32,000 nucleotides of DNA from Opitutales bacterium (GCA_965219535.1 CBDCNV010000001.1:1440001-1472000), one strand, 5' to 3'; counted from the first letter of the stretch, positions 3,466 through 29,690 are shown. Made by a program: numbers and translations. Notes: a model not told the origin generated them from the sequence alone.

Positions 3466-4440
3466 ATGCACACGGTCACAGCAATAGAAGTCCCGCTGCC
3501 CGATGAATTGAAAGAAGAACTTATCGATTTCTGGCAGGGTGTATTTGAAACGAGCTATGATGGGTTTCGCGCTGTTTTTGATGCCAAAGAAAAAGATTAC
3601 AATCACGATATTGTCTATTTAGTCCGAAAAGGGGAGAAGCTGGGCGGAACATGTCATTTATCGCATTCGATTTTCAATCCGGAATTGGGCGGGTTGGGGG
3701 AAGTAGCAACCGCGCCTGAATTTATGCGCATGGGAATTGCGGCGGCGGTATGTGAAGCGGCGCGCGATGAGTTTTTCAAGCATGGGGGAAGGGCAATCTT
3801 TCTGGGGACCGGTAATCCGGAAGCAGCGCGTGTCTACTATCGTTTGGGTTGGCGGAAGCTTGCTGGAGCTAACATGATGGTCTGCATCGCGAGTGGAGAT
3901 TCACCCGAGACCTTTCTTGTCGATTACTATCGGAAAAATGAACCCGTCACAATAGGTCAAGCATCGGCGAGTGATCGAATTTCAATGATTCCATTGATTG
4001 CTACCCCCCATAATTGGCAAGTTTTAGATGCTAACGCAGGTGTATATTCAACGCGGTATGTTTTACTGCAGTCATGCATGAGCCTCTACCCGCGTTATGA
4101 AGCTCTCCTTGAGAATGGACAGGGAACATGGTTTGGCGCGCGAAGCGTCAGCGGTATACTCGTCGGGTTATCGACTGCACGCTTTGTAAATCCCGAACAG
4201 TGCCAGGTGGATGGATTTATCCATCAGAACTTTAATAATGACTGGGGAAAACTGGTAAAAAAAGCGGTGGATTGGGGTTTTTCCAAGGGAAGTTCCATCT
4301 GCAGGGCCACATTATCGGTCGAAGACCGCGAAAAAAAATCACTTTTTGAGGATTTGGGATTTAAAGAGACCGGAAGCGGAGAAGCTTTTGATATCAACGG
4401 ACGTGAAGTACCCGCTATCCAGATGGAAATCCGGCGGTAA
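3466..4440 (+). CDS. GNAT-family acetyltransferase-like protein (GNAT domain followed by a second domain of unknown function)
   Basis: The segment EVATAPEFMRMGIAAAVCEAARDEFFKHGGRAIFLGTGNPEAARVYYRLGWRKL looks like the GNAT acetyl-CoA binding motif A/B. The substrate is not inferable. Confidence 0.6.
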   Translation: MHTVTAIEVPLPDELKEELIDFWQGVFETSYDGFRAVFDAKEKDYNHDIVYLVRKGEKLGGTCHLSHSIFNPELGGLGEVATAPEFMRMGIAAAVCEAARDEFFKHGGRAIFLGTGNPEAARVYYRLGWRKLAGANMMVCIASGDSPETFLVDYYRKNEPVTIGQASASDRISMIPLIATPHNWQVLDANAGVYSTRYVLLQSCMSLYPRYEALLENGQGTWFGARSVSGILVGLSTARFVNPEQCQVDGFIHQNFNNDWGKLVKKAVDWGFSKGSSICRATLSVEDREKKSLFEDLGFKETGSGEAFDINGREVPAIQMEIRR

Positions 4441-4500
4441 TGCGGATAAGCGTATAGGAGAATATGCGGGCATGTATAATTATAGGATGTAGGATATTGC
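4438..4500 (+). repeat. Octamer-periodic array (WATGCGNN)n that begins with the stop codon of 3466..4440
   Basis: The array reads TAATGCGG ATAAGCGT ATAGGAGA ATATGCGG GCATGTAT AATTATAG GATGTAGG. It degenerates after about 4 units. Confidence 0.6.
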
Positions 4501-4527
4501 TTTGGTAAAATTTCCAAAACCTTTAAA

Positions 4528-4656
4528 TTGTCATCGCGAGGCTGCTTGTATGCCGCGGCGATCCAGGGAAGCGTCGGTTGCTTATTTTAGCCTAGGAATG
4601 GAAAATGTCGCTTCGCTCGCAGCCGCCAGACTGTTACGCCTTCCTCGCAATGACAA
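4528..4656. repeat. Imperfect palindromic intergenic element (MITE/REP-like) between convergent genes
   Basis: TTGTCATCGCGAGG (4528-4541) and CCTCGCAATGACAA (4643-4656) are reverse complements at 13/14 positions, and they enclose about 100 nt of GC-rich sequence. It holds no credible ORF. Confidence 0.55.
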
Positions 4657-4724
4657 GCGAGTTTACCTGATGTAGGCTATTCCTAGCGTTCTACTCATTT
4701 ACGCACATGAGCACCCCACTGGCG

Positions 4725-6506
4725 TTAGGTATTGGTCAAGTCAATATTCAGATCGCGTAATTGCTTTTGCGTAACTGCGCCCGGGCTTTCGGTCATCAGG
4801 CATTGCCCCTTCTGCGTTTTTGGGAAGGCGATCACATCACGTATGCTAGAAGTACCCGTAATGATAGCAATTAAGCGGTCAAAACCTACCGCAATACCCC
4901 CGTGAGGGGGCGCTCCATAGTGAAAGGCTTGCAGCATATAACCAAATTGCTCTTTCACTACTTCAGGTGGAATTTTAAGAAAATCTTCGAATACCTTTTT
5001 TTGCAAATCGGGTTGATGGATACGTATACTTCCACCACCAATTTCTGAGCCATTTAAGACAATATCATAATGTTGCCCGCGGACCGAGCGAGGGTCCGAA
5101 TCCAATTTAGGGATATCCTCCGTTACCGGAGACGTGAATGGATGATGAGCTGAAACATAGCGTTGCTCATCCTGATCGAAGAGCATGAGGGGGAAATCGG
5201 TAACCCATAGAAAATTGTACTGATCATCGGGAATGGATAAAAGCCCTCTCTTACTGAGTAATTGAGCGGAATCCAAACGGATACGGCCAAGTATTCCACA
5301 GGTTTGCTCCCAATCCGCGGCGGCAAAAAAGATAATATCCCCATCTTCGACCTTCAGTCTTTCTTTGAGAATAGATTTTTCCTGCTCGGAAAAGAATTTG
5401 AGGATGGGAGATTTCCACTCATTCCCTTCAGCTTTTATAAAAGCCAGTCCCTTTGCCCCCATTGATTTAGCTGCTTCTTCGAGGCTTTTCAATTCGCCTT
5501 GGGTAATATCAGCCAGGCCCTTTGCGTTGAAGGCTTTTACAACCCCATTATTTTTTATAGTGCCAGAAAAGACTTTAAATTCGGAGTCTTTAAAGGTATC
5601 CGAAAAATCTTCAATCTTAAGGTCAAAACGCGTATCGGGTTTGTCTACGCCGTATTGATTCATCGCTTCATGATAGGAGATGTGCGGAAAAGGTAATTCT
5701 AAGTCAACGTCAATGACGTCTTTCCAGATGCGCTGGAATAAGCCTTCGATCAGCTTATACATATCCTCCCGATCGATGAATGACATTTCGATGTCGATCT
5801 GAGTAAATTCAGGTTGACGGTCAGCCCGTAAATCTTCGTCCCGAAAACAGCGGGCCATTTGATAGTAGCGTTCTACTCCCGCAACCATAAGCATCTGCTT
5901 GTATTGTTGAGGCGATTGAACAAGGGCATAAAACTCTCCCGGATTCAATCGGCTGGGCACGAGAAACTCTCGCGCTCCTTCAGGCGTGCTTTTAAATAGC
6001 TCGGGCGTCTCTATTTCAAGAAACCCATTTTCATCCATGTAATCCCGTGTCGATTTTGATGCCTTATGTCGACAGCGCAATCGATTGAAGCTTTGTGGGC
6101 GACGAAGATCAAGGTAGCGGTAAGTCAATCTTAAGTCCTCGTTTACTTTATCTGCTTTTTCGTCTTCGAGCGGAAACGGGGGAACATCGGAAATATTGTG
6201 AATAATAAGCGACCGAGCGAAAACTTCAATTTCCCCCGTTTTGAGATTTTTATTTAGTGTCTCCTCAGATCGGGGTTTTACCTCTCCCGCAATCTCAATA
6301 ACCGATTCAGGTTTTAGCAGTTTCAGGGTTTCGGTTGATTCGAATTCAGCCGGATCAAATACTATTTGAGTCAGCCCTTCGCGATCGCGTAAATCGATGA
6401 AAATAATTCCCCCATGATCGCGCAAGGTAGCGATCCAACCTATGAGCACGACTTCTATGCCTGCATTGGCTTTAGTGAGTTCACTACAATGATGAGTTCT
6501 TTTCAT
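4725..6506 (-). CDS. aspS: Aspartate--tRNA ligase (bacterial type)
   Basis: The 593-aa ORF starts RTHHCSELTKANAGIEVVLIGWIATLRDHGGIIFIDLRDREGLTQIVFDP, as AspRS does, and carries class II motifs (FRDEDLRADRQPEFTQID, GGGSIRIH, GIAVGFDRL). Confidence 0.95.
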   Translation of the reverse strand: MKRTHHCSELTKANAGIEVVLIGWIATLRDHGGIIFIDLRDREGLTQIVFDPAEFESTETLKLLKPESVIEIAGEVKPRSEETLNKNLKTGEIEVFARSLIIHNISDVPPFPLEDEKADKVNEDLRLTYRYLDLRRPQSFNRLRCRHKASKSTRDYMDENGFLEIETPELFKSTPEGAREFLVPSRLNPGEFYALVQSPQQYKQMLMVAGVERYYQMARCFRDEDLRADRQPEFTQIDIEMSFIDREDMYKLIEGLFQRIWKDVIDVDLELPFPHISYHEAMNQYGVDKPDTRFDLKIEDFSDTFKDSEFKVFSGTIKNNGVVKAFNAKGLADITQGELKSLEEAAKSMGAKGLAFIKAEGNEWKSPILKFFSEQEKSILKERLKVEDGDIIFFAAADWEQTCGILGRIRLDSAQLLSKRGLLSIPDDQYNFLWVTDFPLMLFDQDEQRYVSAHHPFTSPVTEDIPKLDSDPRSVRGQHYDIVLNGSEIGGGSIRIHQPDLQKKVFEDFLKIPPEVVKEQFGYMLQAFHYGAPPHGGIAVGFDRLIAIITGTSSIRDVIAFPKTQKGQCLMTESPGAVTQKQLRDLNIDLTNT

Positions 6507-6583: not shown

Positions 6584-6734
6584 GCAGATGAGGAAGCCGG
6601 AAGGCTGGAAAACCAGTTCCGAGTTCCGCAGTCGCGGAACGACATCTTCCAAACTGAAGCAAGAGAAAGAGTATGATTAAGTGAACAAATTAAATTTAAT
6701 ATTCCGCATATTCGCATTCACGCTTTTCCGCTTA
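6584..6734. repeat. Composite intergenic repeat, copy B: purine-rich octamers, then hairpin module Y, then octamer array abutting the stop of 6732..8942
   Basis: Octamers GCCGGAAG GCTGGAAA lie at 6596-6611. Module Y at 6619-6654 is 35/36 identical to 14748-14783. The segment 6701-6734 reads on the minus strand as TAAGCGGA AAAGCGTG AATGCGAA TATGCGGA, with TAA being the gene's stop. Confidence 0.7.
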
Positions 6735-8942
6735 ATTCCCCACTTCAAAGGGCACGGTAAGGACAGCGGAGTTTCCTAATTCGTCAACGGCTTCAAGGAG
6801 AAGGCTATGTCCGCCGGAAGCTAGATCATCAATATTAAGGGTAAAGTTCTCACGGGTGGAATCAAATAATCCGTCATCAGGCCTAATCGATTTATGCGAT
6901 TTACCGTCCAACTGATAAAAAACTTCCCTCAATATACTGTTATTATCCGCGACACTGAATTGCAGATTTATCTCATCACTTTGTATTTCATGCTTATGAA
7001 TGATGATTTCAGGAGGTGAATTATCGATGAGGAAGAGTTCGCTTAAACGAAAACCACTTAGTTCCTGGCCAGGTTCGTTGTCAGGTGCGTCACTTGCCAC
7101 CAGCTTTAGATGATAGTTTCCTTCATCAAATCCCTTGGTGTTAATTGTTGTAACGGATACTTCCATCTTTTCCGCCAAAGTGATCCAGGTTTCATCGCCG
7201 TCTTTTTTTATAAGAAGGGTGAATTCTAAATTGTCACCGTTAGGATCTACCGCTTTCCAGCCCACGGATAACAGACCTTCTTCACCCAATTGTTTGAGTT
7301 GTTGGCGCGGTATACGTTCCGCGATTAATTTATGTGGGTCGCCTTCTTCGAGGAATTTTTTCAAATCGATATTTCTGACGGCCGCGGGCATTTGGATTAA
7401 TTTCAATCCTATGGGGAGAAGACGAATGGATTCTATAAAAGGAGCGGAATTTCGCGATTGATAGAATAGACGTACGCGATTGATCTTCTCTTTTGATTGA
7501 CCTGGTGTCGATTCCGAGGGGAACGCTATTTCGTATTGCAGGTAGCGGGCGTGGGAGCTTTTTATCACCCAATCTCCATTATTTTTTTCCACATCTGCCC
7601 AATCATTCCAAGTGTCATCGGGGTCTTCGGTATTTCCGCTACGCGTGCGAAAAGTGGAAAACGGAGTAACACTGTTGTCGGTAACGGGTAAGAGGTTGCC
7701 CCATTTTACAATCTGTTTGATATCGATTGCTCCTGATGTAAAGACGCCGGTTTCTGCTTTTCCCGACTGTAGTCGGTAAATTTTAGCGGGATTACTGGTC
7801 ACCGCCAAAACAGAATCAGGATGGATTGGGTCAGGGATAAGCACTGTTAATTCACCCCCATCGGGTGTCTGTTGCAAGAGTGACCATTCGCTGCGATCTT
7901 GTACAGAATAAAGTCGTCCTTTATCATTCGTGCCGATCAATAAGGATTGATTCGCGTAGAGTATAAAACTGTAGATATTAAAATTATGAGATTCCCAAAC
8001 GGACTCAACGAACCCTTCATTATCAATCCTGTAGATTCTGCTCGAGCCCCCTTTCACCGCCGATGGTGGAGTGTTAGAATGATTGGAGTTACCCTCCTTC
8101 CCCGATACCGTAACGGAGTAGGTTGACATCGAAGCATTGTTTTCCGTTTTGCGTGAAGACTCCGCACTTTTGTCACTCCCATTGCGGTTGAAGGTGGAAA
8201 AAAAGAGGGTCCCATCACTTTTTGCGACGATACTTTTAATTTCCTGTGCACCGGAATTGTAGAGCGCATAGGCTTTATCTTTATTTTCGATACGGTAAAG
8301 TACACCATCGGGGCTGCTTCCCGCGAGTAAGTGACCCTCTGAATCCCAGGCCAGTTTAGTGAGATGAGTTTGAGGACAACTAAACCATAATTCAGCTTCA
8401 TCTCCCGTTTGAATACCAGGTGAAATCTTATATATATTTGCCGGGCTTCCCGTCGCTACATAAAGATTACCGTCCTCATCAGAGATGAGATCCCAAATAT
8501 ACTCTTCATCGCTATCGAAGTAGATTTCCGGTAACCTTCCCGGTGAGATGCGATAGACACGTCCGCGTGGCGAGGTTCCTACATAAAGATTGTCTTGAGA
8601 ATCGATCGCGATGGCACGCGTCAGGATCTTATCCGGGCTGAAATAATTACTTACCTCACCCTGGGGACTCACTTTAAGGACTGTTCCATTATTCCCGGTT
8701 GCGAGGTAGAGGTTGCCTTGTGAATCAACGACACCGGCCCAGATTATGGGTTCGGGTAGCTCAGCGACTTCTAATAATCCTGGAGCTAATTGTAATGACC
8801 CCTGGTTCCCGAGAGATACGTTTTTAAAATCGCCTTCAATAAAATCATAGTATTTTTCATGGGCGATAGACTGTGTGCGCACGCCATAAAGTGAAGTAAA
8901 GACAAAGCAACCGCAGAGTAGGTAAATTAAGAAATTTTTCAT
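6732..8942 (-). CDS. Secreted beta-propeller repeat protein with C-terminal Ig-like region (function unknown)
   Basis: It has a signal peptide (MKNFLIYLLCGCFVFTSLYG). At least 7 blade-like repeats follow the pattern GNLYVAT..G.IYKISP. The C-terminal ~100 aa are beta-rich. I recognised no catalytic motif. It starts 7 nt after the upstream protease gene. Confidence 0.7.
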   Translation of the reverse strand: MKNFLIYLLCGCFVFTSLYGVRTQSIAHEKYYDFIEGDFKNVSLGNQGSLQLAPGLLEVAELPEPIIWAGVVDSQGNLYLATGNNGTVLKVSPQGEVSNYFSPDKILTRAIAIDSQDNLYVGTSPRGRVYRISPGRLPEIYFDSDEEYIWDLISDEDGNLYVATGSPANIYKISPGIQTGDEAELWFSCPQTHLTKLAWDSEGHLLAGSSPDGVLYRIENKDKAYALYNSGAQEIKSIVAKSDGTLFFSTFNRNGSDKSAESSRKTENNASMSTYSVTVSGKEGNSNHSNTPPSAVKGGSSRIYRIDNEGFVESVWESHNFNIYSFILYANQSLLIGTNDKGRLYSVQDRSEWSLLQQTPDGGELTVLIPDPIHPDSVLAVTSNPAKIYRLQSGKAETGVFTSGAIDIKQIVKWGNLLPVTDNSVTPFSTFRTRSGNTEDPDDTWNDWADVEKNNGDWVIKSSHARYLQYEIAFPSESTPGQSKEKINRVRLFYQSRNSAPFIESIRLLPIGLKLIQMPAAVRNIDLKKFLEEGDPHKLIAERIPRQQLKQLGEEGLLSVGWKAVDPNGDNLEFTLLIKKDGDETWITLAEKMEVSVTTINTKGFDEGNYHLKLVASDAPDNEPGQELSGFRLSELFLIDNSPPEIIIHKHEIQSDEINLQFSVADNNSILREVFYQLDGKSHKSIRPDDGLFDSTRENFTLNIDDLASGGHSLLLEAVDELGNSAVLTVPFEVGN

Positions 8943-8949
8943 CGGGTTA

Positions 8950-12982: not shown

Positions 12983-13810
12983 ATGAGCGTAGCCGACCAA
13001 ATAGAAGATACCGCAGCTAATACTATTCAAAGTGTGCGCGCAGAGGGGTGGTGTCTAGTGAAAGGAGTGATTCCCGAGGAAGAATGTGAGAAAATACGAC
13101 AGGGCATTTATGATGTGGCTAGGGCAAATCGCAAAGATTATGCCACCGAAGGACTGACTTTTCTGCCCGCTTTTATCAATCATAATCAATCCTATGCAAA
13201 GTACATCGCGGATCCTAAGGTATTGGCCGTCGTCAAAGGAATATTTGGTTCCCACCCTCGTGTTTCTTATACGTCAGCGCTCATAAATGAACCTGACAAT
13301 AAAAGGGGGTCATGGCATGCGGACTGGCCGTTTAATGCGCAAAAAGCTGGTCATATCCCGAGTCCTTACCCCATGGATGTAATTTTCCATTTAACCACCC
13401 TTTGGATGATTTCCCCCTTCACGGTTGAAAATGGGGGCACGCTTATTCTTCCCCGGAGTCATCGTAAGCCGACCAATCCAACCTGCGAACCGGATGGAAA
13501 TTGGACTCAACCCCTTGAAGGTGAAATGAACGCGATTGGTCCCAGTGGAAGTGTACTGATACTGGATAGTCGCATGTGGCACGCAACGGCGAAAAATATT
13601 TCCGACAAACCGCGAGTGGGGCTGGCGATTCGCTACGCGCCATGGTGGCTGAATCTGGATATTCTGATGCCGGGCTCGGAAGAGCGTAAAATGATGGTGG
13701 AAGAACCCGGTGTGTCGGAAAATGAAGTGCCCCGATTAAAGCAGGAGGTCTACAATAATTTACCCAATGAAACTAAGCCACTCTTTCGCCATTGGTTACA
13801 TAAGCGTTGA
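12983..13810 (+). CDS. Phytanoyl-CoA dioxygenase (PhyH) family Fe(II)/2-oxoglutarate dioxygenase
   Basis: A His-x-Asp (WHADWPF) and a distal His (RMWHATAKN) are followed by R..GLAIRY, the PhyH-type facial triad and 2OG-binding Arg pattern. Confidence 0.75.
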   Translation: MSVADQIEDTAANTIQSVRAEGWCLVKGVIPEEECEKIRQGIYDVARANRKDYATEGLTFLPAFINHNQSYAKYIADPKVLAVVKGIFGSHPRVSYTSALINEPDNKRGSWHADWPFNAQKAGHIPSPYPMDVIFHLTTLWMISPFTVENGGTLILPRSHRKPTNPTCEPDGNWTQPLEGEMNAIGPSGSVLILDSRMWHATAKNISDKPRVGLAIRYAPWWLNLDILMPGSEERKMMVEEPGVSENEVPRLKQEVYNNLPNETKPLFRHWLHKR

Positions 13811-13877
13811 AAATACAACGGGATGGTTATTAGAATAAGAGTTGAAATGTCTCACTAGTAACCGCTAGATTTGTCCT

Positions 13878-14672
13878 ATGAGTGATTTCGACTTAAGTTA
13901 TGATTATAATTTAGGTTACGATTACGTTAATTCCTTTGTCCAATGGACGAGCTTTGAAGACGATCATACCCCGCGCTGTGCCTTGCATGCCAGTTGCAAG
14001 GTGCGCGGTAAAGGCGAAGAGTTCAGAGAATACTTTTTAAGTCATCCCTGCGCGGGTGAGAAAATGTATGCGGACACACAATTAATATTGCTCCCGGCAT
14101 CTGAGTTTCACGTTATTTTTTCTGATGATGGACAGTTTATGTTTGTAAAATCCTTCGAAACGGAGCCCGGGTTTGAACGCATGGCTTATCGCCGGGGAGA
14201 TACCGTTAAAAGGAAAAACGTACAGATGAAAGGGGTCATCGATATTTTGGAAAGCGGCTTGAGGTATTTTGTCGAAGTTGCGGAAATGACTACCTATAAG
14301 GAAGTCCATGACGCGATGGTCGGTAACAAGCCCATTCTGGGGAGAACACGCTATCTTGCGAAAAAGGGTGATGAAGAAATCGAAGTAGTAGCTGAATATC
14401 CGGTAACGGTTATGAATACACGGCACGACCACGATACGTGGCAGGTCGATACCGGTCCCATGCTGCTCCCCTACTTTTCAATTGAACACAATCTTGAAGT
14501 TGCGCTCTTTCGGCAGGCTTACATTGCCTATAACCGATGGGATTATGCTGAATGTGCGATGCGCTTACCGGTAGCGATTGAAGGGGTGGACCACCCCGTC
14601 CTCTACTATGAAAATTGTGGGCCGCCCGGTACGGAAGTGCGCAATCAGATGTTCGTCGTAAAAGTTATTTAG
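13878..14672 (+). CDS. Hypothetical protein (264 aa, no family recognised)
   Basis: It is a long ORF with ordinary composition, co-directional with the PhyH gene and 67 nt downstream of it. It has no signal peptide or TM segment. Confidence 0.7.
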   Translation: MSDFDLSYDYNLGYDYVNSFVQWTSFEDDHTPRCALHASCKVRGKGEEFREYFLSHPCAGEKMYADTQLILLPASEFHVIFSDDGQFMFVKSFETEPGFERMAYRRGDTVKRKNVQMKGVIDILESGLRYFVEVAEMTTYKEVHDAMVGNKPILGRTRYLAKKGDEEIEVVAEYPVTVMNTRHDHDTWQVDTGPMLLPYFSIEHNLEVALFRQAYIAYNRWDYAECAMRLPVAIEGVDHPVLYYENCGPPGTEVRNQMFVVKVI

Positions 14673-14889
14673 TATGCGGGTACGCGTGAATGCGTATATG
14701 CGAAAAAGCGTGAATGCGGTTATGGATATACGCAAAAAAGGCGTGATCCGAGTTTCGCAGTCGCGGAACGACATCTTCCAAACCAGTTGATCGGTGTGTC
14801 GGATTGATCGACGCTGTGTGTATACTTGGAAATCTCCGCATTACCGCTTATACGCATTTACGCGAATACGCATTATCGCGTATCTGCAA
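14673..14889. repeat. Composite intergenic repeat, copy C, filling the whole convergent gap from stop codon to stop codon
   Basis: Positions 14673-14745 hold 9 octamers (TATGCGGG TACGCGTG AATGCGTA TATGCGAA AAAGCGTG AATGCGGT ...). Module Y is at 14748-14783 and module W at 14783-14807. After a 17-nt spacer, 14825-14889 holds the same octamer family inverted (..CCGCAT TACCGCTT ATACGCAT TTACGCGA ATACGCAT TATCGCGT). Confidence 0.8.
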
Positions 14890-15120
14890 TCAGCCTTTAA
14901 CTACTTTACCTGCTTTGATTGCTTTGGCCGATACCCACATTCTTTTTACCTGGCCACTGGCCAAGCGCACTCTAATCTTCTGCACATTGGGTCGAAAAGT
15001 GCGTTTGACTGCCTTCGTTATATTAGTACCGATGCCCCCGCTCTTTTTAGGTATACCTTTGCGATGAATTATCCCACCGCGAACGGGTCTCTTGCCAGTG
15101 ATTGCACAAATTCTAGACAT
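14890..15120 (-). CDS. rpmB: 50S ribosomal protein L28
   Basis: The 76-aa ORF starts MSRICAITGKRPVRGG.. and is highly basic, with the typical L28 N-terminus and size. Confidence 0.9.
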   Translation of the reverse strand: MSRICAITGKRPVRGGIIHRKGIPKKSGGIGTNITKAVKRTFRPNVQKIRVRLASGQVKRMWVSAKAIKAGKVVKG

Positions 15121-15276
15121 AGTAATTTATCTCTCTCGTAAAAAAGGAGAAAAAAGTAGTCTTTACCCGTGTTAATGCAAGAAAAAATAGAAAACAGATC
15201 AGATCCATCACGCTTATATTATCATTTTAACTTTGCACCTTAGAATCGATCTAATCAATTTAATGAGAAATAAGCG

Positions 15277-16422: not shown

Positions 16423-17052
16423 ATGGCATATACACTTCCAGAATTAGAATATTCATACGATGCATTGGAACCGCATATTGATGCGCGGACGATGGAAATT
16501 CATCATTCAAAACATCATGCAACTTACATTACTAAGGCCAATGCGGCTCTTGAAGACGCTAGTGATCTCGCCGGTAAGTCAGTTGAGGAACTTATTGCTG
16601 ATGTTGCGAATCTTCCAGATAAGGTAAAGGGTCCTCTGCGTAATAATGCAGGTGGGCATGCCAATCACTCTTTTTTCTGGCAAACACTTTCAGGTAGTGG
16701 TGGAGGAGAACCTTCGGGTGATCTCGCTGCCGGTATCAATGACGCATTCGGTGGTCTCGATAGTTTTAAAACAGCATTTACCGATGCAGGTGTTAACCGC
16801 TTCGGAAGTGGTTGGGCTTGGCTTGTCGTAAACGCCGAGGGAAAACTCGCGGTCACTTCTACGCCGAATCAGGATAGTCCATTGATGAAGGGTGTAGTCG
16901 ATGTGGAGGGAACACCAATCATTGGGCTCGATGTCTGGGAGCACGCTTATTATTTAAAATATCAAAACGTGAGGCCGGACTATATCGCCGCTTTCTGGAA
17001 TGTTGTTAATTGGGCCAAAGCCGAAGAAAGATTTAAAGCAGCAACCGGGTAA
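16423..17052 (+). CDS. sodA: Superoxide dismutase, Fe/Mn family (Mn-type by similarity to E. coli SodA)
   Basis: Motifs present: [51 protein letters not shown] and [19 protein letters not shown]. The GGHANHS and NQDSPLM segments match the MnSOD pattern as I remember it. Confidence 0.88.
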
Positions 17053-17053
17053 G

Positions 17054-17081
17054 GGTTCGTGCTTCAGGGTTCAGGGTTCAG
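17054..17081 (+). repeat. Heptamer array (GGTTCAG)n immediately after the sodA stop
   Basis: It reads GGTTCGT GCTTCAG GGTTCAG GGTTCAG, starting 2 nt after the TAA at 17050-17052. Confidence 0.7.
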
Positions 17082-17174
17082 GAAATTGAAATAGATTATA
17101 GTCTTCTTTATCCTTGAATTCTATTTGGATATTTTGAGGAGGGTGAACAAGTGGCATGGAACAAGATAATGGCT

Positions 17175-17230
17175 CCATCATGCATCATGTATCCCGCATC
17201 TTGCATCCTGAATTAAGCATTTTGCATTAC
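17175..17230 (-). repeat. Heptamer array (NNNATGC)n downstream of the efp stop
   Basis: The plus strand reads CCATCAT GCATCAT GTATCCC GCATCTT GCATCCT GAATTAA GCATTTT GCATTAC. In the efp sense it starts 14 nt after the stop. Confidence 0.65.
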
Positions 17231-17244
17231 TCTAATCCACTATT

Positions 17245-17802: not shown

Positions 17803-17965
17803 TGATTGTTTGGCTCTGTAATTTAGTTAGTACAATTAATAGTGCGAACATGTGATTAGGTTATTGAGGGGAATGGTGTCAATCCTGAGACGCATCATTC
17901 TCACACAAATATAGACGCTTTACAATTGCGCTAATAGCCGTAGGGTGATGACAGTAAGTATATTT

Positions 17966-19306
17966 ATGAAACAGCGGACGATCCATCGTGAAGCCTCGAT
18001 CAAAGGGAAGGGCTTACATACGGGCGAGGAGGTACAAATGACCTTGAAGCCGGCACCAGAAAATCACGGTGTCGTCTTTCGGCGCGTCGATCTGTATGGA
18101 AAACCGGAGATCAAACCGAATGCTGAAGTGGTTTCAGATATTATGCGGAGCACTTCAATATCGAGTGGTCACGTTACTCTCAATACAGTCGAACATATTC
18201 TCAGCGCGCTCAGTGGGACGGAGGTGGACAACGTGCTTATTGAGATCGATGCGAGTGAACCACCTATTCTCGATGGATCAGCTAAACCTTTTGTGCAATT
18301 AATCCAAAAGGCTGAGCCAATTGAACAGGATACAGAACGCGATTATTTCGAACTCAAAGAACCCGTTTCCGTAATTAGGGGCAATAGTTCTTACATTGCC
18401 CTTCCACACAACGGCCTGAAAATCAGCTGTACCTTAACCGATGACCGGGGCGGATCACATACCCAGCATCTTTCGCTTGATATTAATTCTCAATCTTACA
18501 TCGCCGATATTGCGCCTGCGCGGACCTTTGCGTTTTTTGAAGAGGTAGAAAACCTTCGCCAAATGGGAAAAATTCGAGGGGGAAGTCTGGACAATGCGAT
18601 CCTCATAAAAGGCGATACTATACTTTCCAAGGAACCCTTGCGTTTTAAAGATGAACTCGTCCGGCATAAAATACTGGATATTCTTGGAGACATCACACAT
18701 TTGGGGAAGCCCTTAAGGGCGCACATTATCGCGGTGCGACCCAGCCATGCTCTCAATCATGCCCTGACTCAAGCGATTTATGATATTATGCGGGCGGAAA
18801 GCAATGGTCGGCAAAAAAAGAAAAAACAGACCCCGGCAGTAATTGTAGCACCTGAGGAAACGGTTCTTGATATTCGACGCATCCTCGATTTGCTGCCTCA
18901 TCGATACCCCTTTGTCATGATCGATCGAGTGATCGATATTAAAGGAGATAGCGAACTCGTCGCGATTAAAAATGTCTCAATCAATGAACCCTACTTTCAG
19001 GGACATTACCCCGGCCGCCCTATTATGCCGGCAGTACTGCAGATTGAAGCCATGGCCCAGGCAGCGGGAGTCCTGCTCCTTCGCCAGATATCAGGAGATG
19101 GAAAAGTCGCGCTCTTTATGAGCTGCGATAAGGTAAAACTGCGGCACCCCGTAGTGCCCGGAGACCAACTGGAGATACAAGTGAAATTGGATAAGATAAG
19201 AGGGCGTAAGATTGCCAAGGCAAGTGCATCCTGCAAAGTGGGGAAGAAAAAAGTGTCCTCTTGTGAACTGATGTTTGTGGTAGTTGATGATGCGGATGAG
19301 GCGTAA
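17966..19306 (+). CDS. lpxC/fabZ: Bifunctional UDP-3-O-acyl-GlcNAc deacetylase / 3-hydroxyacyl-ACP dehydratase (LpxC-FabZ fusion)
   Basis: The N-terminal half is LpxC-like ([16 protein letters not shown].., ..HKILDILGD..). A KKKK-rich linker lies near 18800-18840. The C-terminal half is FabZ-like ([14 protein letters not shown].., [23 protein letters not shown]). The track ORF begins at a GTG at 17945, but the ATG at 17966 aligns with canonical LpxC N-termini. Confidence 0.9.
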
Positions 19307-20778: not shown

Positions 20779-22629
20779 ATGAAGAGACTGATCCTGGGAC
20801 TCCTATTTTTGCCAATAAGTTTAAGTGCGCAGAAAAGCGAATCGAGCGCGGATGTCTTTGTAACCTTACCTGATTTTTCAGTCACGGAGACAAGAGTGGC
20901 TAACCCGGAGCCAGCCGGCACTTTTGCGTCTGCGATTACGGAATTGCGATTTGAGCCACTGATTGATGTGCAAACCCGCAACCTCGCGGAAGCGCAGGGA
21001 GATGTAACGATTCGCGGCGGCATTTTTGAAAACACTGGATTCCGGGTAGGGGCAGCCACCTTGTTTGATCCACAAACCGGTCACTACTTTGCAGAGATCC
21101 CGATAGCACCTCAGATGCTTTCTCTACCAACTGTAATTACGGGTATAGAGAATGCGCACGCGGGTTTTAATTCGACCGTAGGATCTATCAATTATGCATG
21201 GAATCCAATACGCAATGGGGGTGAAACCGGGATAGGAATTGGAGACAACAACTTAAATCTACAGCGAATTTATTTTGGAGCGGTAAATGAATATAATGAT
21301 GAGGGTAATACCGTGGGAATTGATCTTTCATTTTCCCGATCGGAGTCCGACGGTACGCGAATGTATGGTGATCACAATTTTAATCGATACGCGGGAAGAA
21401 TTCAGTTGCTGGGTGAGCGGTCGCAAACGGATTTATTTGCCGGCTATCAATCGAAGTTCTTTGGGTGGCCCAACATGTATACCCCTTTCAATGTAAATGA
21501 GACGGAAAATTTACAGACCAATCTATATCTCATTAATCACCGGGAAAATTATGCTGATGACAGTTATATAGAATTCACGGGTTACTATCGACGGCACAAA
21601 GATGATTATGAATTTAATCGTTTTGAGCCGGGTCAATTTAATCCCTTTCAGCATGAAACCAAAGTTTGGTCAGCCGGGATTCAGGGATATCAGGATTTCC
21701 AGAAAATTGCTCTCAATTACAGTGCGCAATTTTTGGCGGATGAGATTAATTCAAGCAATCTGACATTTGGCCCCTTCAGTTCACGCAGTTATTATAAATT
21801 CACGCTTTTGCCCGAATGGCGGCAGGCATTGAATACTGAGACAGATCTTATATTACGCGCCGGTGTGAGTTATGATGACACGAATCGCGATGGATCAAGA
21901 GTATCACCCATGGCATCGGTATCCATTACCCAGAATGATGGAAGGGGCAGCGGACACCATTATTATTTTGAGTATGCCGAGAGTAGTCAGGTCGCGGGTT
22001 ACACGGCAATTGCTTCAAACCCCAACGGCGGTCTTTTTCGTGGCAAACCCGATGCGGCGAGAGAGCGCAGCCGAAATATTGAAGTGGGCGCTGATTTTAT
22101 CCGACCACAATGGCAGGGTCACATCGCCATCTTTTACCGGCTCGACAAAGACTTATTAGACTGGACTTACAGCTTTGAAAGCACCTCCGCGCGCACCGCC
22201 AATAATGTCGATATCGATACATTTGGAACCGAAGCTACTTTTATTACTCATTGGCAGGATCTCAATTTTATTCTGGGGTATACCTTTCTCAATAAAAGTG
22301 AGGATTATGGAATCGCCGATGTTGATGCCAGTTTTTATGCATTGAATTTTCCCCGTCATCGATTGACCGCGGCACTGACTTATCGTTTCTTAGATCAATT
22401 GGAATTTCGTCTCGATAATGAATTTCGTTCCCAGGAGGAAAATCTACTCCGTCGAAGTTCAAACGAGGCTGCGCTTACTTCGCTAAGCCTGGTATGGTAC
22501 CCCCCTTCATTAGAAGGATTTGAATTTAGTTTTACCGTGGATAACATCTATAACAGCAATTTTGAGGAAATTCCCGCTACCCCCGCCGTCCGCCGCCAAA
22601 TATCCGGTTATTTCAGCTTCAGGTGGTAG
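20779..22629 (+). CDS. TonB-dependent outer-membrane receptor (small, BtuB-sized; substrate unknown)
   Basis: It has a signal peptide, then a TonB-box/plug-like N-terminus (DVFVTLPDFSVTETRV.., EAQGDVTIRGG), then a long beta-strand-rich region ending in an aromatic residue (..YFSFRW). Confidence 0.85.
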   Translation: MKRLILGLLFLPISLSAQKSESSADVFVTLPDFSVTETRVANPEPAGTFASAITELRFEPLIDVQTRNLAEAQGDVTIRGGIFENTGFRVGAATLFDPQTGHYFAEIPIAPQMLSLPTVITGIENAHAGFNSTVGSINYAWNPIRNGGETGIGIGDNNLNLQRIYFGAVNEYNDEGNTVGIDLSFSRSESDGTRMYGDHNFNRYAGRIQLLGERSQTDLFAGYQSKFFGWPNMYTPFNVNETENLQTNLYLINHRENYADDSYIEFTGYYRRHKDDYEFNRFEPGQFNPFQHETKVWSAGIQGYQDFQKIALNYSAQFLADEINSSNLTFGPFSSRSYYKFTLLPEWRQALNTETDLILRAGVSYDDTNRDGSRVSPMASVSITQNDGRGSGHHYYFEYAESSQVAGYTAIASNPNGGLFRGKPDAARERSRNIEVGADFIRPQWQGHIAIFYRLDKDLLDWTYSFESTSARTANNVDIDTFGTEATFITHWQDLNFILGYTFLNKSEDYGIADVDASFYALNFPRHRLTAALTYRFLDQLEFRLDNEFRSQEENLLRRSSNEAALTSLSLVWYPPSLEGFEFSFTVDNIYNSNFEEIPATPAVRRQISGYFSFRW

Positions 22630-22802
22630 TCGGGAGGACCGGAAGGCTGGAGGGATGGAAAGCCGGAGGGAGGGAAAGCTGGAGAGCCGGAAGACCGGAA
22701 GGTCAGAAAGCCAGTTGATCGGTGTGTCGGATTGACCTTAGCTTATTGTAATTCTTGGAAATTTCCGCATTACCGCTTATACGCATGTTCGCGTATACAC
22801 AT
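22630..22802. repeat. Composite intergenic repeat, copy D, filling the convergent gap from stop codon to stop codon
   Basis: Positions 22630-22710 hold about 10 purine-rich octamers (ACCGGAAG GCTGGAGG GATGGAAA GCCGGAGG GAGGGAAA GCTGGAGA GCCGGAAG ACCGGAAG). Module W at 22711-22735 is 25/25 identical to 14783-14807. After an 18-nt spacer, 22754-22786 is 32/33 identical to 14825-14857, and it continues as an inverted octamer array up to the stop of 22803..23666. Confidence 0.8.
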
Positions 22803-23666
22803 TCACACGTGTGCGGTTTCTCCCGACTTTCGTTCGGCTATGAAGACGGCGAAAATCATTATTCCACCTCCCAGGAGAAGCCTTGGTATATCGGTGCTTT
22901 CGCCAAAGAAAATAAGTGAGCAGAGAATAGCCAGGGGTATCTTAAGATTATTAAATACCGCGAGGGTCCCGGCGTTACTCAGGGTAGCACCTTTGTTCCA
23001 AAGGAAAAACCCGACCCCGGATGGAAGTAATCCAAGATAGAGGAGGGCACTAATCTCGGTTGCCTCAAGTTGGTCGAGATGGTCCCAACCTCCGGTCAGT
23101 GTTGTCATGATAGTCGTTACGACAACCGCTCCCAGGTAAAGAAGAGCAAAGACTTCATGATCTTTAAATTGGGTAATGCACAATCGGACTTGACGGTATT
23201 CGATCTGGCCGAAGGCGAAGCAGAGATTGGAAAATTGCATCAGTAAAAATCCAATAATAACACCGCTTAAATTAATATCCTGGTAGCGGATTAACGCGGC
23301 GCCAAAGACCGCCATCAGTGCGGCACCGAGAAAATAGACTTGAAACTTTTTTTTATAAAAATCATTGATGATCGTAACATAAATCGGGGTAAAAATTGTA
23401 AATAATGCTATTTGGTAAGCTTCCAGGTACTGAAATGAAAAGAGATAACTGCAGTACATCAGCCCATACTGTACCGCGCCGATAAAAAAAAGTCTTCCCA
23501 TGATCAAGGGTGCCAGACCCTTCCATCGCAGTACGGGTAGGAATAGGATTGAAGCGAGCATCATTCGCGCCCAGGCGACAAAGTTGGGGTCAAGCCCGGT
23601 GAGATAACTTTTGATCAACCCAAATGAAAAAGCCCAGATCAGTGAGACAATGATGAGATATATCAC
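22803..23666 (-). CDS. EamA/DMT-superfamily transporter
   Basis: The 287-aa ORF has about 10 hydrophobic segments in two halves, with an EamA-like N-terminus (IIVSLIWAFSFGLIK). It has a GTG start 9 nt after the upstream gene. Confidence 0.75.
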   Translation of the reverse strand: MIYLIIVSLIWAFSFGLIKSYLTGLDPNFVAWARMMLASILFLPVLRWKGLAPLIMGRLFFIGAVQYGLMYCSYLFSFQYLEAYQIALFTIFTPIYVTIINDFYKKKFQVYFLGAALMAVFGAALIRYQDINLSGVIIGFLLMQFSNLCFAFGQIEYRQVRLCITQFKDHEVFALLYLGAVVVTTIMTTLTGGWDHLDQLEATEISALLYLGLLPSGVGFFLWNKGATLSNAGTLAVFNNLKIPLAILCSLIFFGESTDIPRLLLGGGIMIFAVFIAERKSGETAHV

Positions 23667-27044: not shown

Positions 27045-27070
27045 GTTATGCGCCCAAAGTATTACTTTAG

Positions 27071-27101
27071 TTTACACTTTTCATAAACTGCGAAGGATAA
27101 T
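27071..27101 (+). promoter_or_regulatory. Possible sigma-70-type promoter for tRNA-Arg
   Basis: TTTACA (27071-76) and GATAAT (27096-101) are separated by a long 19-nt spacer. The -10 element ends 9 nt before the mature tRNA 5' end. Confidence 0.3.
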
Positions 27102-27110
27102 TCATATTAC

Positions 27111-27186
27111 GCGGGAGTAGCTCAGTGGATAGAGCAGCGGTTTTCTAAACCGTTGGTCGGGAGTTCGAATCTCCCCTCCCGTACCA
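27111..27186 (+). tRNA. tRNA-Arg (anticodon UCU), CCA encoded
   Basis: I folded it by hand. The acceptor is GCGGGAG/CTCCCGT (one G-U), the D arm GCTC/GAGC, the anticodon arm GCGGT/ACCGT with loop TTTCTAA (anticodon TCT), the variable loop 5 nt, and the T arm GGGAG-TTCGAAT-CTCCC. The discriminator is A, followed by CCA. Confidence 0.93.
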
Positions 27187-27280
27187 TTTTAATGGCTAAA
27201 GTCGATAAGGTGGTGAGAAAGCAATTGAAAAGAATTAAGTGTAGAACATACTTTTAGTCCGGAAACTGTGTGAGATCTCA

Positions 27281-27757: not shown

Positions 27758-27778
27758 TTTAATTGGGAGGATTATAAG

Positions 27779-28111
27779 ATGACGGATATCGACCTTTCTG
27801 ATTTAGTGGCAAGTATGCTCAGGGCTGCTGGGGATTCACTTAAAGACAAGTGGCCGGAGTCAAAAGATTATGCCGAATCGGAATTTAAAAAAATAGGTGA
27901 AACTATTATTTTCATTAGCCAGGAAGTTTCAGCTGGAAGGATGAGTGAGGAAAAAGCCAAATTACATTTGGAAATTCAAAAAAATTCATCGAAAATGGTC
28001 ATCTTGACATTAGAAGGACTGGGATTGCTGGCAGTGGAAGCAGCAATCAACGCGGCCCTGAAAGTCGTTACCGACACCGTTAATTCCGCGATCGGCTTCG
28101 CCTTGCTTTAA
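27779..28111 (+). CDS. Hypothetical small protein (110 aa) with a hydrophobic Gly/Ala-rich C-terminal segment
   Basis: It is the only start in the window with a clear Shine-Dalgarno (GGGAGG at 27765-27770, 8 nt upstream). It begins 21 nt after the lipoprotein gene. Its 3' end overlaps the convergent lipase gene by 32 nt. Confidence 0.6.
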   Translation: MTDIDLSDLVASMLRAAGDSLKDKWPESKDYAESEFKKIGETIIFISQEVSAGRMSEEKAKLHLEIQKNSSKMVILTLEGLGLLAVEAAINAALKVVTDTVNSAIGFALL

Positions 28112-29123
28112 GCGAGGTATTACGTTTGCTCGCGTAGGCTTCCAGCTTTTTACAGTAATTTAAAATAAAATGATCGGTGGCTCCGGCTTGCCAATTTACA
28201 GTTACCCTTTTAATTAATCTGAAAGCGCGATCGATAATCGTTGGGTTTTGAATAAGCCGCAAATCACTGAAATCTTCCTTACAAGCGGTGAGGTAGCGCA
28301 TATCCGCGTGGTGCCGATAACCAACCAATCTTTGCAGGAGTCTGATGATGAAATTACTGACAACAGGAATGGCAAAGAATTCAAAAAAAGCTATTAAGGC
28401 GTGGGACAAATAAGCGGGTGGAACGCGCGGCACCAAATCGGCCGCATTGATTACCCGGTAAATGGGTGTCTTAATATTATCACCGAACTCTGATGAAGCA
28501 ACTCTTGGACTGCCGAAGGTATAACAGGCTCCGAGACTATCGGAGACGAGAAACTTTGTAGCCAATAAAGCCAAGGCTCCACCGAGAGAATGCCCGGTGA
28601 TATATAATGCACAGCCGGAATTCTCGATAGTGTTAAGTGCGCTTTCAATTTGCGGCTTTAAATCATTAAATGCTTTATAAAAACCACCATGTATCTTGCT
28701 GCCATCCGTTTCGATCATCGGTGCCTTGAGATCTGTTTTTATATCTCTGATGTCTTTTTCGGTCCCTCTAAATGAAAGCACCCCCATATTATACTTCGCA
28801 CTCGTCGCCAGAAATGCCTGGGTGCCATTGTGATTAAATGTTTTTATTAACTCAAATTCAGCCTTTGCTAAATAAGCGCGTAATTCTTCGATCGCTTGAT
28901 CCGCCGATTGTCGTTGTTCAGCAAGCAGCTTTTCCAAAGTTTCTTTGATATCTTTTTCGTCAGTTACATCGGCGAGGGCTTTGGCGATCGAAGTTAACTC
29001 TACGCTTCCTTCAAATTTGAAATAAGCCAAGCGTGACATTTCAGCCAGGAGTAGTGCGCTGCGGTCACTGTAGGCTGCTCTTTTGACAGGCGGGGTCAGT
29101 AGAATCTCGTTTTCAAAATACAT
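28080..29123 (-). CDS. Class-3 lipase family alpha/beta hydrolase (no signal peptide)
   Basis: Lipase_3 pattern: SFRGT..D, HGGF, nucleophile elbow YITGHSLGGALALLA, YTFGSPRV and YRVINAADLVPRVP. The track ORF starts at a TTG at 29144, and the ATG at 29123 (MYFENE..) is more likely. Confidence 0.8.
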   Translation of the reverse strand: MYFENEILLTPPVKRAAYSDRSALLLAEMSRLAYFKFEGSVELTSIAKALADVTDEKDIKETLEKLLAEQRQSADQAIEELRAYLAKAEFELIKTFNHNGTQAFLATSAKYNMGVLSFRGTEKDIRDIKTDLKAPMIETDGSKIHGGFYKAFNDLKPQIESALNTIENSGCALYITGHSLGGALALLATKFLVSDSLGACYTFGSPRVASSEFGDNIKTPIYRVINAADLVPRVPPAYLSHALIAFFEFFAIPVVSNFIIRLLQRLVGYRHHADMRYLTACKEDFSDLRLIQNPTIIDRAFRLIKRVTVNWQAGATDHFILNYCKKLEAYASKRNTSLKARRSRSRN

Positions 29124-29265
29124 AGTGTCCCTTTTTTTTATCAAGTGGGAATATAGCGATTTATAAACTCAGTGTTTAATATTTATAAATATCATTACAA
29201 ATAACCGCGATCACCATCCGTTATTTGTTTCCCATAAGAAGTAAGTTAATTTATAGTTGGGTGAT

Positions 29266-29625
29266 ATGAAAAAATCACTAAAAGGAGCGCTTATATCAGG
29301 TTTGGTATTTCCCGGTCTGGGTCAAGTTATCCTAAAAGGTTATAAACGAGGTGCCCTTTTGATCCTGATGATCTCAGTCGCTATGCTGATTTTCATTTTG
29401 AAGGCAGTCGAACAAGCCTTTATCATCTTGGAAAATGTTGAATCAGCGGGTGGAGCATTAGATATGAATGCGCTCTTAAACGCTGCTGCGGAGGCTTCTA
29501 CTTCACCAGCCAATAGTGCAATGAATTATGCCCTATCATTTATTTTTCTCTGCTGGTTATATTCGATTATAGATGCTTTCCTGTTGGGAAGAAGAAGGGA
29601 CAGGGAAATGCGTGAAAGCGTGTAA
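29266..29625 (+). CDS. Small membrane protein (about 119 aa, 2-3 TM segments)
   Basis: Hydrophobic segments include GALISGLVFPGLGQVIL, ALLILMISVAMLIFIL and ALSFIFLCWLYSIIDAFLL. The track ORF starts at a TTG at 29257, with an ATG at 29266. The last 6 codons and the stop are supplied by the octamer repeat. Confidence 0.6.
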   Translation: MKKSLKGALISGLVFPGLGQVILKGYKRGALLILMISVAMLIFILKAVEQAFIILENVESAGGALDMNALLNAAAEASTSPANSAMNYALSFIFLCWLYSIIDAFLLGRRRDREMRESV

Positions 29626-29690
29626 GCGTGAAAACGGGATAGCGTTAATGAGAATATGCGTGAATGCGGTGATGCGGTGATGCGGTGTGC
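29607..29690 (+). repeat. Octamer-periodic array (WATGCGNN)n spanning the stop codon of 29257..29625
   Basis: It reads AATGCGTG AAAGCGTG TAAGCGTG AAAACGGG ATAGCGTT AATGAGAA TATGCGTG AATGCGGT GATGCGGT GATGCGGT. The stop at 29623-25 is the TAA of unit 3. Confidence 0.8.

Follow-up and report, generated by a model that had tools for sequence, protein, structure and literature searches.

Octamer arrays with an AWGCG core abut stop codons in the sense orientation in an Opitutales genome

Introduction

How gene ends are formed is poorly understood in many bacterial lineages that lack terminators made of a hairpin and a U tract. The question is raised by a stretch of 32,000 nt from the genome of an Opitutales bacterium (GCA_965219535.1, CBDCNV010000001.1:1440001-1472000), hereafter called the window, in which positions are counted from the first nucleotide. 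Six genes of the window run into arrays of a degenerate octamer, each array being a string of units that are built around an AWGCG core, repeated every 8 nt and read in the direction of the gene whose stop codon they abut. What are these arrays, is there any sign that the cell uses them and, if so, at which step of gene expression might they act?

Results

Six octamer arrays start at stop codons

The six arrays were listed in an initial annotation of the window, and all of them were recovered at the same places, both by reading the sequence and by counting patterns in it. Where dinucleotide-preserving shuffles lead one to expect 0.15 copies of GCGN5GCGN5GCG (shuffle maximum, 2), the window has 17, and 16 of these matches fall within the six arrays. 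A phase-aware scan of the window returned exactly these six arrays together with three chance chains that lie inside genes and lack the A/T context. Tandem Repeats Finder detects the arrays only in part, because their units are too dissimilar.

The genes upstream of the arrays, whose annotated assignments hold, encode a GNAT acetyltransferase, a Reg_prop protein, a protein of 264 aa without a Pfam match (hyp264), the protein L28 (rpmB, 14890-15123, minus strand), an EamA transporter and a protein of 122 aa (hyp122). Behind the GNAT gene (3466-4440, plus strand), five units (TCCGGCGG TAATGCGG ATAAGCGT ATAGGAGA ATATGCGG) occupy 4430-4469 (+); the stop codon TAA (4438-4440) opens the second unit, and a degenerate tail with a faint 8-nt period extends to about 4501. 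The Reg_prop gene (6732-8942, minus strand) is followed by four units (TTAAGCGG AAAAGCGT GAATGCGA ATATGCGG) at 6704-6735 (-), with its TAA (6732-6734) inside unit 1. The hyp264 gene (13878-14672, plus strand) ends in TAG at 14670-14672, and its array (14672-14743, +) comprises six core units (14672-14719) and three degenerate units in phase with them. Facing it is the rpmB array (14836-14891, -), whose first unit, GATTGCAG, is degenerate and includes the GA of the stop codon TGA (14890-14892); six core units follow, the last of which is GGAGATTTCC. A degenerate first unit, GAATGTGT, likewise overlaps the TGA (22803-22805) of the EamA gene (22803-23666, minus strand), in an array (22765-22804, -) that goes on with four core units and ends with GGAAATTTCC. 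The longest of the six, ten units at 29606-29685 (+), straddles the end of hyp122 (29257-29625), whose TAA (29623-29625) lies inside unit 3; its last three units are identical (three copies of TGATGCGG, 29662-29685), which is the only trace of recent slippage.

Each array starts at a stop codon, as had been annotated. The stop either is the first triplet of a unit or precedes the first clear unit by 0-9 nt, and arrays of this lineage-specific family occupy the 30-90 nt that come next. The flush position is not an artefact of calling open reading frames (ORFs) that end at the first stop of a stop-rich repeat, because two to three related species conserve the C-terminus of hyp264 (…VVKVI), that of L28 (…KVVKG/A) and that of the Reg_prop protein, and the arrays of these genes start 0-9 nt after the native stops.

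The core and the phase of the unit appear to be constrained

The window is 99.98-99.995% identical to contigs of three public assemblies and was extended through them to 51.6 kb. A comparison at the level of strains was uninformative, as seven of the loci retrieved (L001-L003, L124-L126 and L128) come from the same genome, three of them having been compared by BLAST at 99.98-99.995%. Syntenic loci of three related species, L176, L129 and L131, were found through homologues of hyp264 and of AspRS, the latter being 95, 87 and 85% identical to the AspRS of the window, respectively. The nearest named AspRS proteins, at 70-72% identity, belong to Puniceicoccaceae, Oceanipulchritudo, Ca. Moanabacter and metagenome-assembled genomes (MAGs) of Opitutales. 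A further locus, L103, is an 8-kb stretch of the Opitutales MAG chromosome OY829953.1 with the same repeat set as the window. An origin in Bacteroidota, which the lpxC-fabZ fusion of the window might suggest, was rejected on the strength of this common repeat set and of the AspRS relatives, which are Opitutae (Verrucomicrobiota). The extended window, L129, L131, L103 and L132 together provided a family set of 17 arrays and 96 units from 11 independent loci.

On the sense strand, the consensus of the unit is D-W-A-T-G-C-G-D. Among the 96 units, position 3 is A in 90, position 5 is G in 93, position 6 is C in 89 and position 7 is G in all 96, so that A3, G5, C6 and G7 are conserved at 93-100%. 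Position 4 is looser (T 58, A 22, C 13), and so are positions 1 (A 49, G 25, T 22), 2 (T 39, A 36, G 13, C 8) and 8 (T 41, A 28, G 27), C being absent from both positions 1 and 8. The sense strand of the arrays contains about 12% C and about 30% G. At the five less conserved positions, the average number of shared bases is 2.20 for adjacent units, 2.40 for units two apart and 2.35 for units of different arrays, the last figure being about the value predicted from the column frequencies. Since adjacent units are no more alike than units of different arrays, the AWGCG arrays are strings of a periodic motif and not fresh tandem duplicates, with the exception of the three copies of TGATGCGG. They share one property of a slippage microsatellite or variable-number tandem repeat, the change of copy number by whole units between relatives, and lack another, the greater likeness of neighbouring than of distant units (2.20 versus 2.35).

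When orthologous units of the window, L129 and L176 were aligned, 11 substitutions were found, all of them at positions 1, 2, 4 and 8; none of the 11 had hit A3, G5, C6 or G7 (P = 0.0005 under uniform substitution). Together with the length differences and losses described next, the pattern of substitution indicates that the core and the phase of the arrays are under constraint, and that unit number and even the presence of an array are not. In the hyp264 array, an in-phase indel of 16 nt, exactly two units, separates the window from L176 and L129 (alignment A1), and the rpmB array differs between relatives by about 24 nt, as read by eye. The Reg_prop array has about 11 units in L129, 4 in the window, 1 in L176 (TAAGCGG only) and none in L131. 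The GNAT array has an orthologous, alignable counterpart in L129, and an array is found there in L131; it is absent from L176, where the spacer between the GNAT gene and aspS measures 47 nt, versus 284 nt in the window. Altogether L131 lacks four of the arrays of the window.

The place between hyp264 and rpmB, which in the window, L129 and L176 holds two facing arrays and shared non-repeat cores, is occupied in L131 (10806-11282) by a gene resembling that of shikimate kinase (PF01202).

The arrays also are rich in stop triplets, of which there are 53 in the family set versus 36.4 ± 3.8 after column shuffles, with none of 2000 shuffles reaching 53. Stops are present in at least two frames in 14 of the 17 sense arrays, and the antisense strands are almost free of them. 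Single arrays fold no better than shuffled sequences (z 0.28 and -1.36) and are therefore predicted to be unstructured. The hyp264 and rpmB arrays together give a predicted hairpin of 231 nt (-90.4 kcal/mol, z -5.4), an automatic result of two sense arrays facing each other; an RNA structure or terminator formed by inverted arrays was rejected as a general explanation because this pair folds and single arrays do not.

Four other candidates were rejected as well. A chain of mini-ORFs with overlapping AUG and UGA, as in ATGCGGTGATG, would leave the GCG core and the period unexplained, and T4 is only 60% conserved. Footprints of 8-bp target-site duplications do not agree with units that differ within one array. 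A conserved motif at the 3' end, similar to GGAAATTTCC, follows only 5-6 of the 17 arrays and is not a defining part. Likenesses to G-quadruplexes, DnaA boxes, uptake sequences, Chi/KOPS and anti-Shine-Dalgarno sequences each fail to account at once for the motif, the period and a polarity that follows the gene.

ORFs of 97-115 aa cross the arrays on the complementary strand (4224-4517, minus; 14794-15141, plus; 22732-23040, plus), because that strand is almost without stop triplets; a gene of 42 aa called at L181 1381-1509 is an example of a call that is likely to be spurious. For annotation, the complement, open in all frames, is thus a source of spurious antisense ORFs, and the arrays mark true stop codons.

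Orientation and position follow the gene

All six arrays of the window are in the sense orientation of the upstream gene, as had been annotated, and the same holds for the focal genus together with its closest relatives, at all 11 independent loci (two-sided binomial p about 0.001). In 52 kb, none of nine divergent, promoter-bearing spacers contains an array of any kind, and seven of nine convergent spacers contain one. Arrays in tandem spacers keep to the stop side and leave 130-320 nt up to the next start; in long convergent spacers the array always abuts the gene to which it is sense. An unbiased survey of the lineage (473 kb, Tandem Repeats Finder) found short-period repeats to be about 9-fold enriched in intergenic DNA, where they were nearer to a stop in 81 cases and nearer to a start in 38.

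The rule was also examined at greater distance. In 351 kb of marine-type contigs from JGI metagenomes, retrieved through a dispersed element of the lineage, there are only eight AWGCG arrays: four are sense after a stop (two of these behind an array of another family), two are antisense and two are ambiguous. Focal and distant relatives together, with a further antisense array in L172 included, give 15 sense and 3 antisense arrays (p about 0.008); the orientation rule is therefore not absolute. A scan of GTDB genomes for four consecutive AWGCG octamers gave at least 120 loci in many phyla; the matches listed are mostly perfect octamer repeats of other phyla, with the source genome not among them. 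Counting only arrays at most 20 nt from a gene end, 23 were sense and 6 antisense after a stop among the matches listed (p about 0.002). The simple gene caller used for the orientation counts recovered 48 of 53 reference genes and made no false calls.

Among the matches listed (L004-L123), Verrucomicrobiota, Gemmatimonadota, Streptomyces and Saprospiraceae often have near-perfect octamer repeats such as (GTTGAAGC)n, (GGGGAAGC)n and (GGTGATGC)n.

These observations bear on two proposals of the initial annotation. The first was a role at the level of the transcript, in 3'-end formation, in stability or as a platform for proteins. A polarity that follows the gene and not the DNA strand, together with a core of 4-5 nt that appears to be under selection, points to a role during or after transcription and so fits the general part of this proposal; 3'-end formation or stability in particular would be a further step of inference. 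The second, a small repeat that targets stop codons at the DNA level, finds little support: a segment of 93 nt that bears an array is duplicated at two loci, but I know of nothing that could recognise true stop codons in DNA.

The arrays are not associated with known terminators or RNA families

The only clear intrinsic terminator of the window is, as annotated, that of glnK (166-203, minus strand), a canonical hairpin (AGACCGGCC...GGCCGGTCT) followed by T7 that is conserved in L176. A search of 52 kb for intrinsic terminators gave one further, weak candidate, located in the left flank 3' of a PhyH gene, and no G+C-rich hairpin followed by a U tract was found at any array. When the window was scanned with Rfam, only a tRNA-Arg reached the gathering score, and the region 14600-14950 gave nothing at E <= 1. 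The annotation had recognised no named family in the arrays and had set them apart from CRISPR; the Rfam scan bears out the former, and the latter agrees with units of 8 nt without spacers, as compared with CRISPR repeats of 23-50 nt and unique spacers of similar length. Literature searches on octamer and tandem repeats, whether of Verrucomicrobia or of stop-codon regions, turned up no description of the AWGCG family.

The unit matches the elemental pause consensus

The consensus for elemental pausing of RNA polymerase is G-10 Y-1 G+1, or g-11 G-10 t-3 g-2 Y-1 G+1 in its extended form, where -1 is the 3' end of the RNA (PMC6062546; PMC11077087). Diverse polymerases obey this consensus, and pausing is suppressed by coupled ribosomes (PMC11077087). 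On the RNA-like, non-template strand, T4 G5 C6 G7 of the unit coincide with T-3 G-2 Y-1 G+1, and a period of 8 places G5 of the preceding unit, 9 nt upstream of C6, at -10. Among periods of 6 to 9, only 8 puts a G of the GCG core there. Of the 79 units that have a preceding unit, and can thus be scored, 72 have G-10, Y-1 and G+1, although this consensus may not be the preference of the verrucomicrobial polymerase; 49 have T-3 G-2 and 47 have all five positions. Position -11 is T or A, not G, and conservation is higher for A at -4 than for T at -3. The five-position consensus was also counted within 60 nt downstream of stops, using three genomes of the genus, and there it occurs 35 times in the sense and 3 times in the antisense orientation, at a density of 6.5 per kb as compared with 1.5 per kb in the coding background. 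The single polarity expected of a pause element is that of the arrays, with 11 of 11 focal loci sense, or 15 against 3 when distant relatives are included.

Discussion

Do the arrays brake RNA polymerase?

Given the match described above, I tentatively suggest, as the first choice among several explanations, that the arrays may be tandem pause sites that brake the polymerase after the ribosome has left it, probably as the kinetic half of a factor-dependent termination mechanism. Each array would be a row of 4-11 pause sites just past the reading frame, in which a polymerase that is no longer pushed by a translating ribosome would be slowed or parked. Unstructured nascent RNA favours backtracking, and the C-poor spacers, with no C at positions 1 and 8, would keep the transcript unstructured. 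Stop triplets in all three frames would halt ribosomes, leaving nothing to push the polymerase through the array; since these triplets are enriched beyond what composition predicts, no ribosome could follow the polymerase into it. During the pause, a termination factor (Rho or NusG, for example) or a downstream element would have time to act, and the outcome might be a definition of gene ends, by termination or by 3'-end formation, that requires no hairpin, in a genome nearly devoid of hairpin-plus-U terminators. Such rows would explain the sense polarity, since a pause signal is strand-specific, and the flush position after the stop, since coupled ribosomes suppress pausing.

Several observations weigh against pausing. 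The match with the consensus is post hoc, having been noticed after many other comparisons, and the pause logo does not predict that A3 should be more conserved than T4. A TGCG core recurs with a period of 7 as well (30450-30484), which brings no G to -10. The sense RNA is poor in C, and hence a poor loading site for Rho, and a classical Rho terminator has its rut site upstream of the pause sites, whereas here the order would be the other way round. Three arrays, all in relatives at a greater distance, run antisense to the genes on either side of them: those of L139 and L169, between co-directional genes, and a six-unit array in L172. L176, in spite of an AspRS 95% identical to that of the window, lacks the GNAT, aspS and Reg_prop arrays, so that arrays are dispensable. 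Finally, other array families share the position and not the motif. CAGTGAA arrays are sense and on the stop side in seven of seven cases, and AAGTCAA, CCGGAAGG and AGGGTTC arrays lie flush with stops; none of the four fits the pause consensus. The cause that places arrays at stops would then be more general than the AWGCG motif.

Comparison with other explanations

Some of the same observations would be accommodated by a protein that reads the RNA. In this explanation, which I consider rather unlikely, the array in the 3' untranslated region is a periodic platform for an oligomeric RNA-binding protein, a ring or a filament in which each subunit reads one A-U-G-C-G core, much as TRAP and HutP read spaced triplets, and which, next to the stop, would control mRNA stability, 3'-end processing or ribosome release. 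A conserved core in strict phase with three freely varying spacer bases, the sense orientation in the 3' untranslated region, and single arrays that are predicted to be unstructured and hence accessible are all consistent with such a platform; 4-11 units are a plausible number for a ring or a short filament, and base-specific contact explains the conservation of A3 more easily than the pause logo does. However, a candidate protein is neither known nor encoded nearby, the number of units varies freely among close relatives, in which whole arrays are lost, and the coincidence of the core and the period with the pause consensus would be left unexplained.

That variability is more readily understood if the arrays are a satellite that the cell merely tolerates, although I doubt this too. 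Slippage and ectopic recombination would generate arrays, of which only those located 3' of genes and at a distance from promoters would survive; these would be pushed up to the stop by deletion bias, and the orientation with stops in all frames would be the one tolerated beside a reading frame. Unrelated unit families with periods of 6, 7, 8 and 9 lie side by side in this one niche, short-period repeats are about 9-fold enriched in intergenic DNA, whole arrays have been lost in close relatives, unit numbers change in phase and the array-containing segment of 93 nt has been duplicated, all as expected of a satellite with fast turnover; the stops in two or three frames of sense arrays, nearly absent from the antisense strand, suit the proposed filter. 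Neutral decay, however, cannot hold four positions at 93-100% while the rest of the unit is at chance similarity, nor does it lead one to expect that none of 11 orthologous substitutions should fall in the core. The stop filter fails for the AAGTCAA family, which is flush with stops in its stop-less orientation, and in long convergent spacers the array abuts its sense gene even though there is no penalty for extending an ORF. Moreover, arrays begin at the native stops of proteins with conserved C-termini.

A third possibility, which seems improbable, is that the complement is the functional strand: its RNA (H-CGC-A-T-W-H) would be C-rich, G-poor and unstructured, and could act as a rut-like loading site for Rho against convergent or antisense transcription, which would be halted before it reaches deep into the gene. 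With one C per sense unit, C far outnumbers G in the complement; convergent spacers hold about 13 of the 17 arrays of the focal set, intrinsic terminators are rare, and the three antisense exceptions, in tandem contexts, present their C-rich strand to the upstream transcript. On the other hand, five sense arrays are in tandem contexts and have no convergent partner (Reg_prop in two species, hyp122, L143 and L152), a rut site flush against the gene to be protected would put termination inside that gene, and 32-88 nt is short for a rut site. The primary site of Rho prefers C preceded by a pyrimidine, and few of the C residues are so preceded.

Least of all is to be expected from fail-safe stops, in which a period of 8 (2 modulo 3) with about one stop triplet per unit would release read-through or frameshifted ribosomes in all frames: the enrichment of stop triplets (53 versus 36.4 ± 3.8), their presence in at least two frames of 14 of 17 arrays with almost none in antisense, and the frequent identity of the gene's own stop with the stop triplet of the first unit agree with this idea, but one to three backups would suffice where up to 11 units are found, the invariant GCG core is left unexplained and the companion AAGTCAA, AGGGTTC and CCGGAAGG families are free of stops in the sense orientation.

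Relation to known repeats and signals

The resemblance to the elemental pause signal lies in the T-G-C-G core and in the G found 9 nt upstream of the C on the non-template strand; the difference is that known sites are single and scattered, whereas the arrays would be rows. In E. coli, the study of Larson et al. in 2014 is said to have found pause sites enriched at translation start sites. To my knowledge, neither natural head-to-tail rows of pause sites nor a position after stops has been described.

Among repeats, the STRR heptamer arrays of heterocystous cyanobacteria come close: they are lineage-specific, multi-family, short-period and intergenic, and mixed or nested with small dispersed repeats, like the arrays described here. 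These differ from STRR in their period of 8 instead of 7 and in their phylum, Verrucomicrobiota, and I know of no STRR described with strict sense orientation, a stop-flush position or a conserved core with random spacers. Like the arrays, REP, BIME and REPIN elements are extragenic, of high copy number and located just 3' of stops, with a proposed effect on termination and mRNA stability, and hairpins of REP type, in the shared core S1 and in the GGTGGAGCGGGCTG...CGCGTTCCACC element (both described below), adjoin the arrays. The arrays themselves, however, are predicted to be unstructured; they are not imperfect palindromes of 20-40 nt and carry no GTAG or CGTC tag.

TRAP binds GAG/UAG every 5-6 nt and HutP binds UAG every 7 nt, and these sites resemble the arrays in having a short core in strict phase, free spacers and 4-11 copies; unlike the arrays, they are found in 5' leaders, their cores are triplets and the proteins that bind them are known. 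With a rut site, the complement of an array shares a C-rich, G-poor and unstructured sequence, but it is shorter (32-88 nt versus roughly 70-80 nt) and flush with the gene, and the sense RNA is opposite in composition, with G well above C. About half of the Borg repeat regions of Methanoperedens are intergenic or have their first unit within the end of a gene, and they are fast-evolving and genome-specific (PMC9879509). Borg repeats differ in being perfect, A-rich copies with longer units, of 18-21 nt in the examples given, and in lacking the pattern of a conserved core with random spacers (PMC9879509).

Taken as a whole, the arrays are best grouped with the short intergenic tandem arrays, with a real chance of being a new kind of gene-end signal. 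Were they indeed rows of pause sites, which is offered here as a possibility and not as an expectation, then, besides terminators of the hairpin-plus-U and the rut-dependent kind, bacteria would have a third means to end a transcription unit. Such a signal would be readable from sequence, and a weaker form might exist in other phyla that have sense AWGCG octamer arrays. Such rows would also provide a natural test bed for the elemental pause, in which period, core and unit number can be varied, and a direct link between ribosome release and polymerase kinetics. Even if the arrays are not rows of pause sites, purifying selection on a core of 4-5 nt in 8-nt phase would imply that some machine reads them, and its identification would reveal new biology in Verrucomicrobiota.

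Composite spacers and companion arrays

The AWGCG arrays are parts of composite spacers that share non-repeat cores. Core S1, of 37 nt (TCCGAGTTYCGCAGTCGCGGAACGACATCTTCCAAAC), is present at 6618-6654 and again at 14747-14783 with 97% identity over the 37 nt; it contains the hairpin GTTCCGC-AGTC-GCGGAAC and is conserved at the orthologous site in L176. Core S2 (CCAGTTGATCGGTGTGTCGGATTGA) is present at 14783-14807 and at 22711-22735, and its homology continues into the adjacent arrays, giving the duplicated segment of 93 nt (14783-14874 versus 22711-22803, 85% identical) that includes the EamA array.

Several unrelated unit families, with periods of 6, 7, 8 and 9, are found side by side in the same niche. 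An octamer array of CCGGAAGG type (22630-22706, +) runs from the first base after the stop of hyp616 (20779-22629), and the same family, which does not fit the pause consensus, recurs at 6590-6616 and in L129 and L176. A heptamer array, (AGGGTTC)n, starts in the stop codon of sodA (17051-17082, +); it is absent from L129, and in L131 the site has a canonical hairpin and T8 terminator where the window has the array. Another, (GATGCAN)n, lies about 14 nt after the stop of efp (17176-17232, -). An (ATTGCGG/ATTCGGA)n array (30450-30484, +) begins about 8 nt after a TAG at 30441-30443, and the flanks of the extended window contain (CAGTGAA)13, inverted CTTCGT/GACGAA arrays and a seventh AWGCG array.

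The ORF of a response regulator (30005-30328) ends at an in-frame TAG, beyond which the frame runs on with a plausible receiver-domain sequence (GIEELKAAIEAIVSGRSYYSPIV...) to the TAG at 30441-30443. The latter is the real end of the reading frame; the first TAG could be a nonsense mutation, a sequencing error common to all assemblies or a site of read-through.

In relatives, CCGGAAGG-type arrays were noted in L129 (2623-2742, 10840-10930 and 19410-19460) and in L176 (reverse complement of 1760-1810). The family is G-rich on the plus strand of the window in every case noted, including two places where this makes it antisense to both flanking genes. Because of this bias, and because the cumulative GC skew rises across the whole window, the family may follow the replication strand rather than the genes.

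Two dispersed elements accompany the arrays. One is an inverted-repeat element that is bounded by TTGTCATCGCGAGG ... CCTCGCAATGACAA, contains a ...GCGACATCTTCCATTCC motif akin to core S1 and looks like a member of a miniature inverted-repeat transposable element or REPIN-like family; it was seen in the window at 4528-4660, between GNAT and aspS, and in L131 at 685-925 and 13795-13860, in the GNAT-aspS and sodA-efp spacers. The other, GGTGGAGCGGGCTG(TCCCTAGCACGC)...GCGCGTTCCACC, is palindromic, exists with and without an insert of about 30 nt and is often directly 3' of arrays (window +38,100 to +38,400, in L128; L103 5266-5340 and 6800-6910; L129 17060-17135). An exact 26-mer of this palindromic element retrieved 38 contigs from JGI metagenomes.

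The marine-type relatives have (TTTTGACN)n arrays, the complement of AAGTCAAA, just upstream of gene starts (L169 2483-2515, L149 2393-2426, L140 9501-9534, L142 8129-8157 and L147 656-682). Each unit contains TTGAC, the core of the -35 hexamer, and in the other orientation the family is found flush after stops.

Two coding features of the window may be added. A conserved hydrophobic ORF of 53 aa (3200-3361, +) lies between the SDR and GNAT genes and is called as a gene in L124 and L176, and 17945-19306 encodes an LpxC-FabZ fusion protein (PF03331 and PF07977) in this Opitutae genome.

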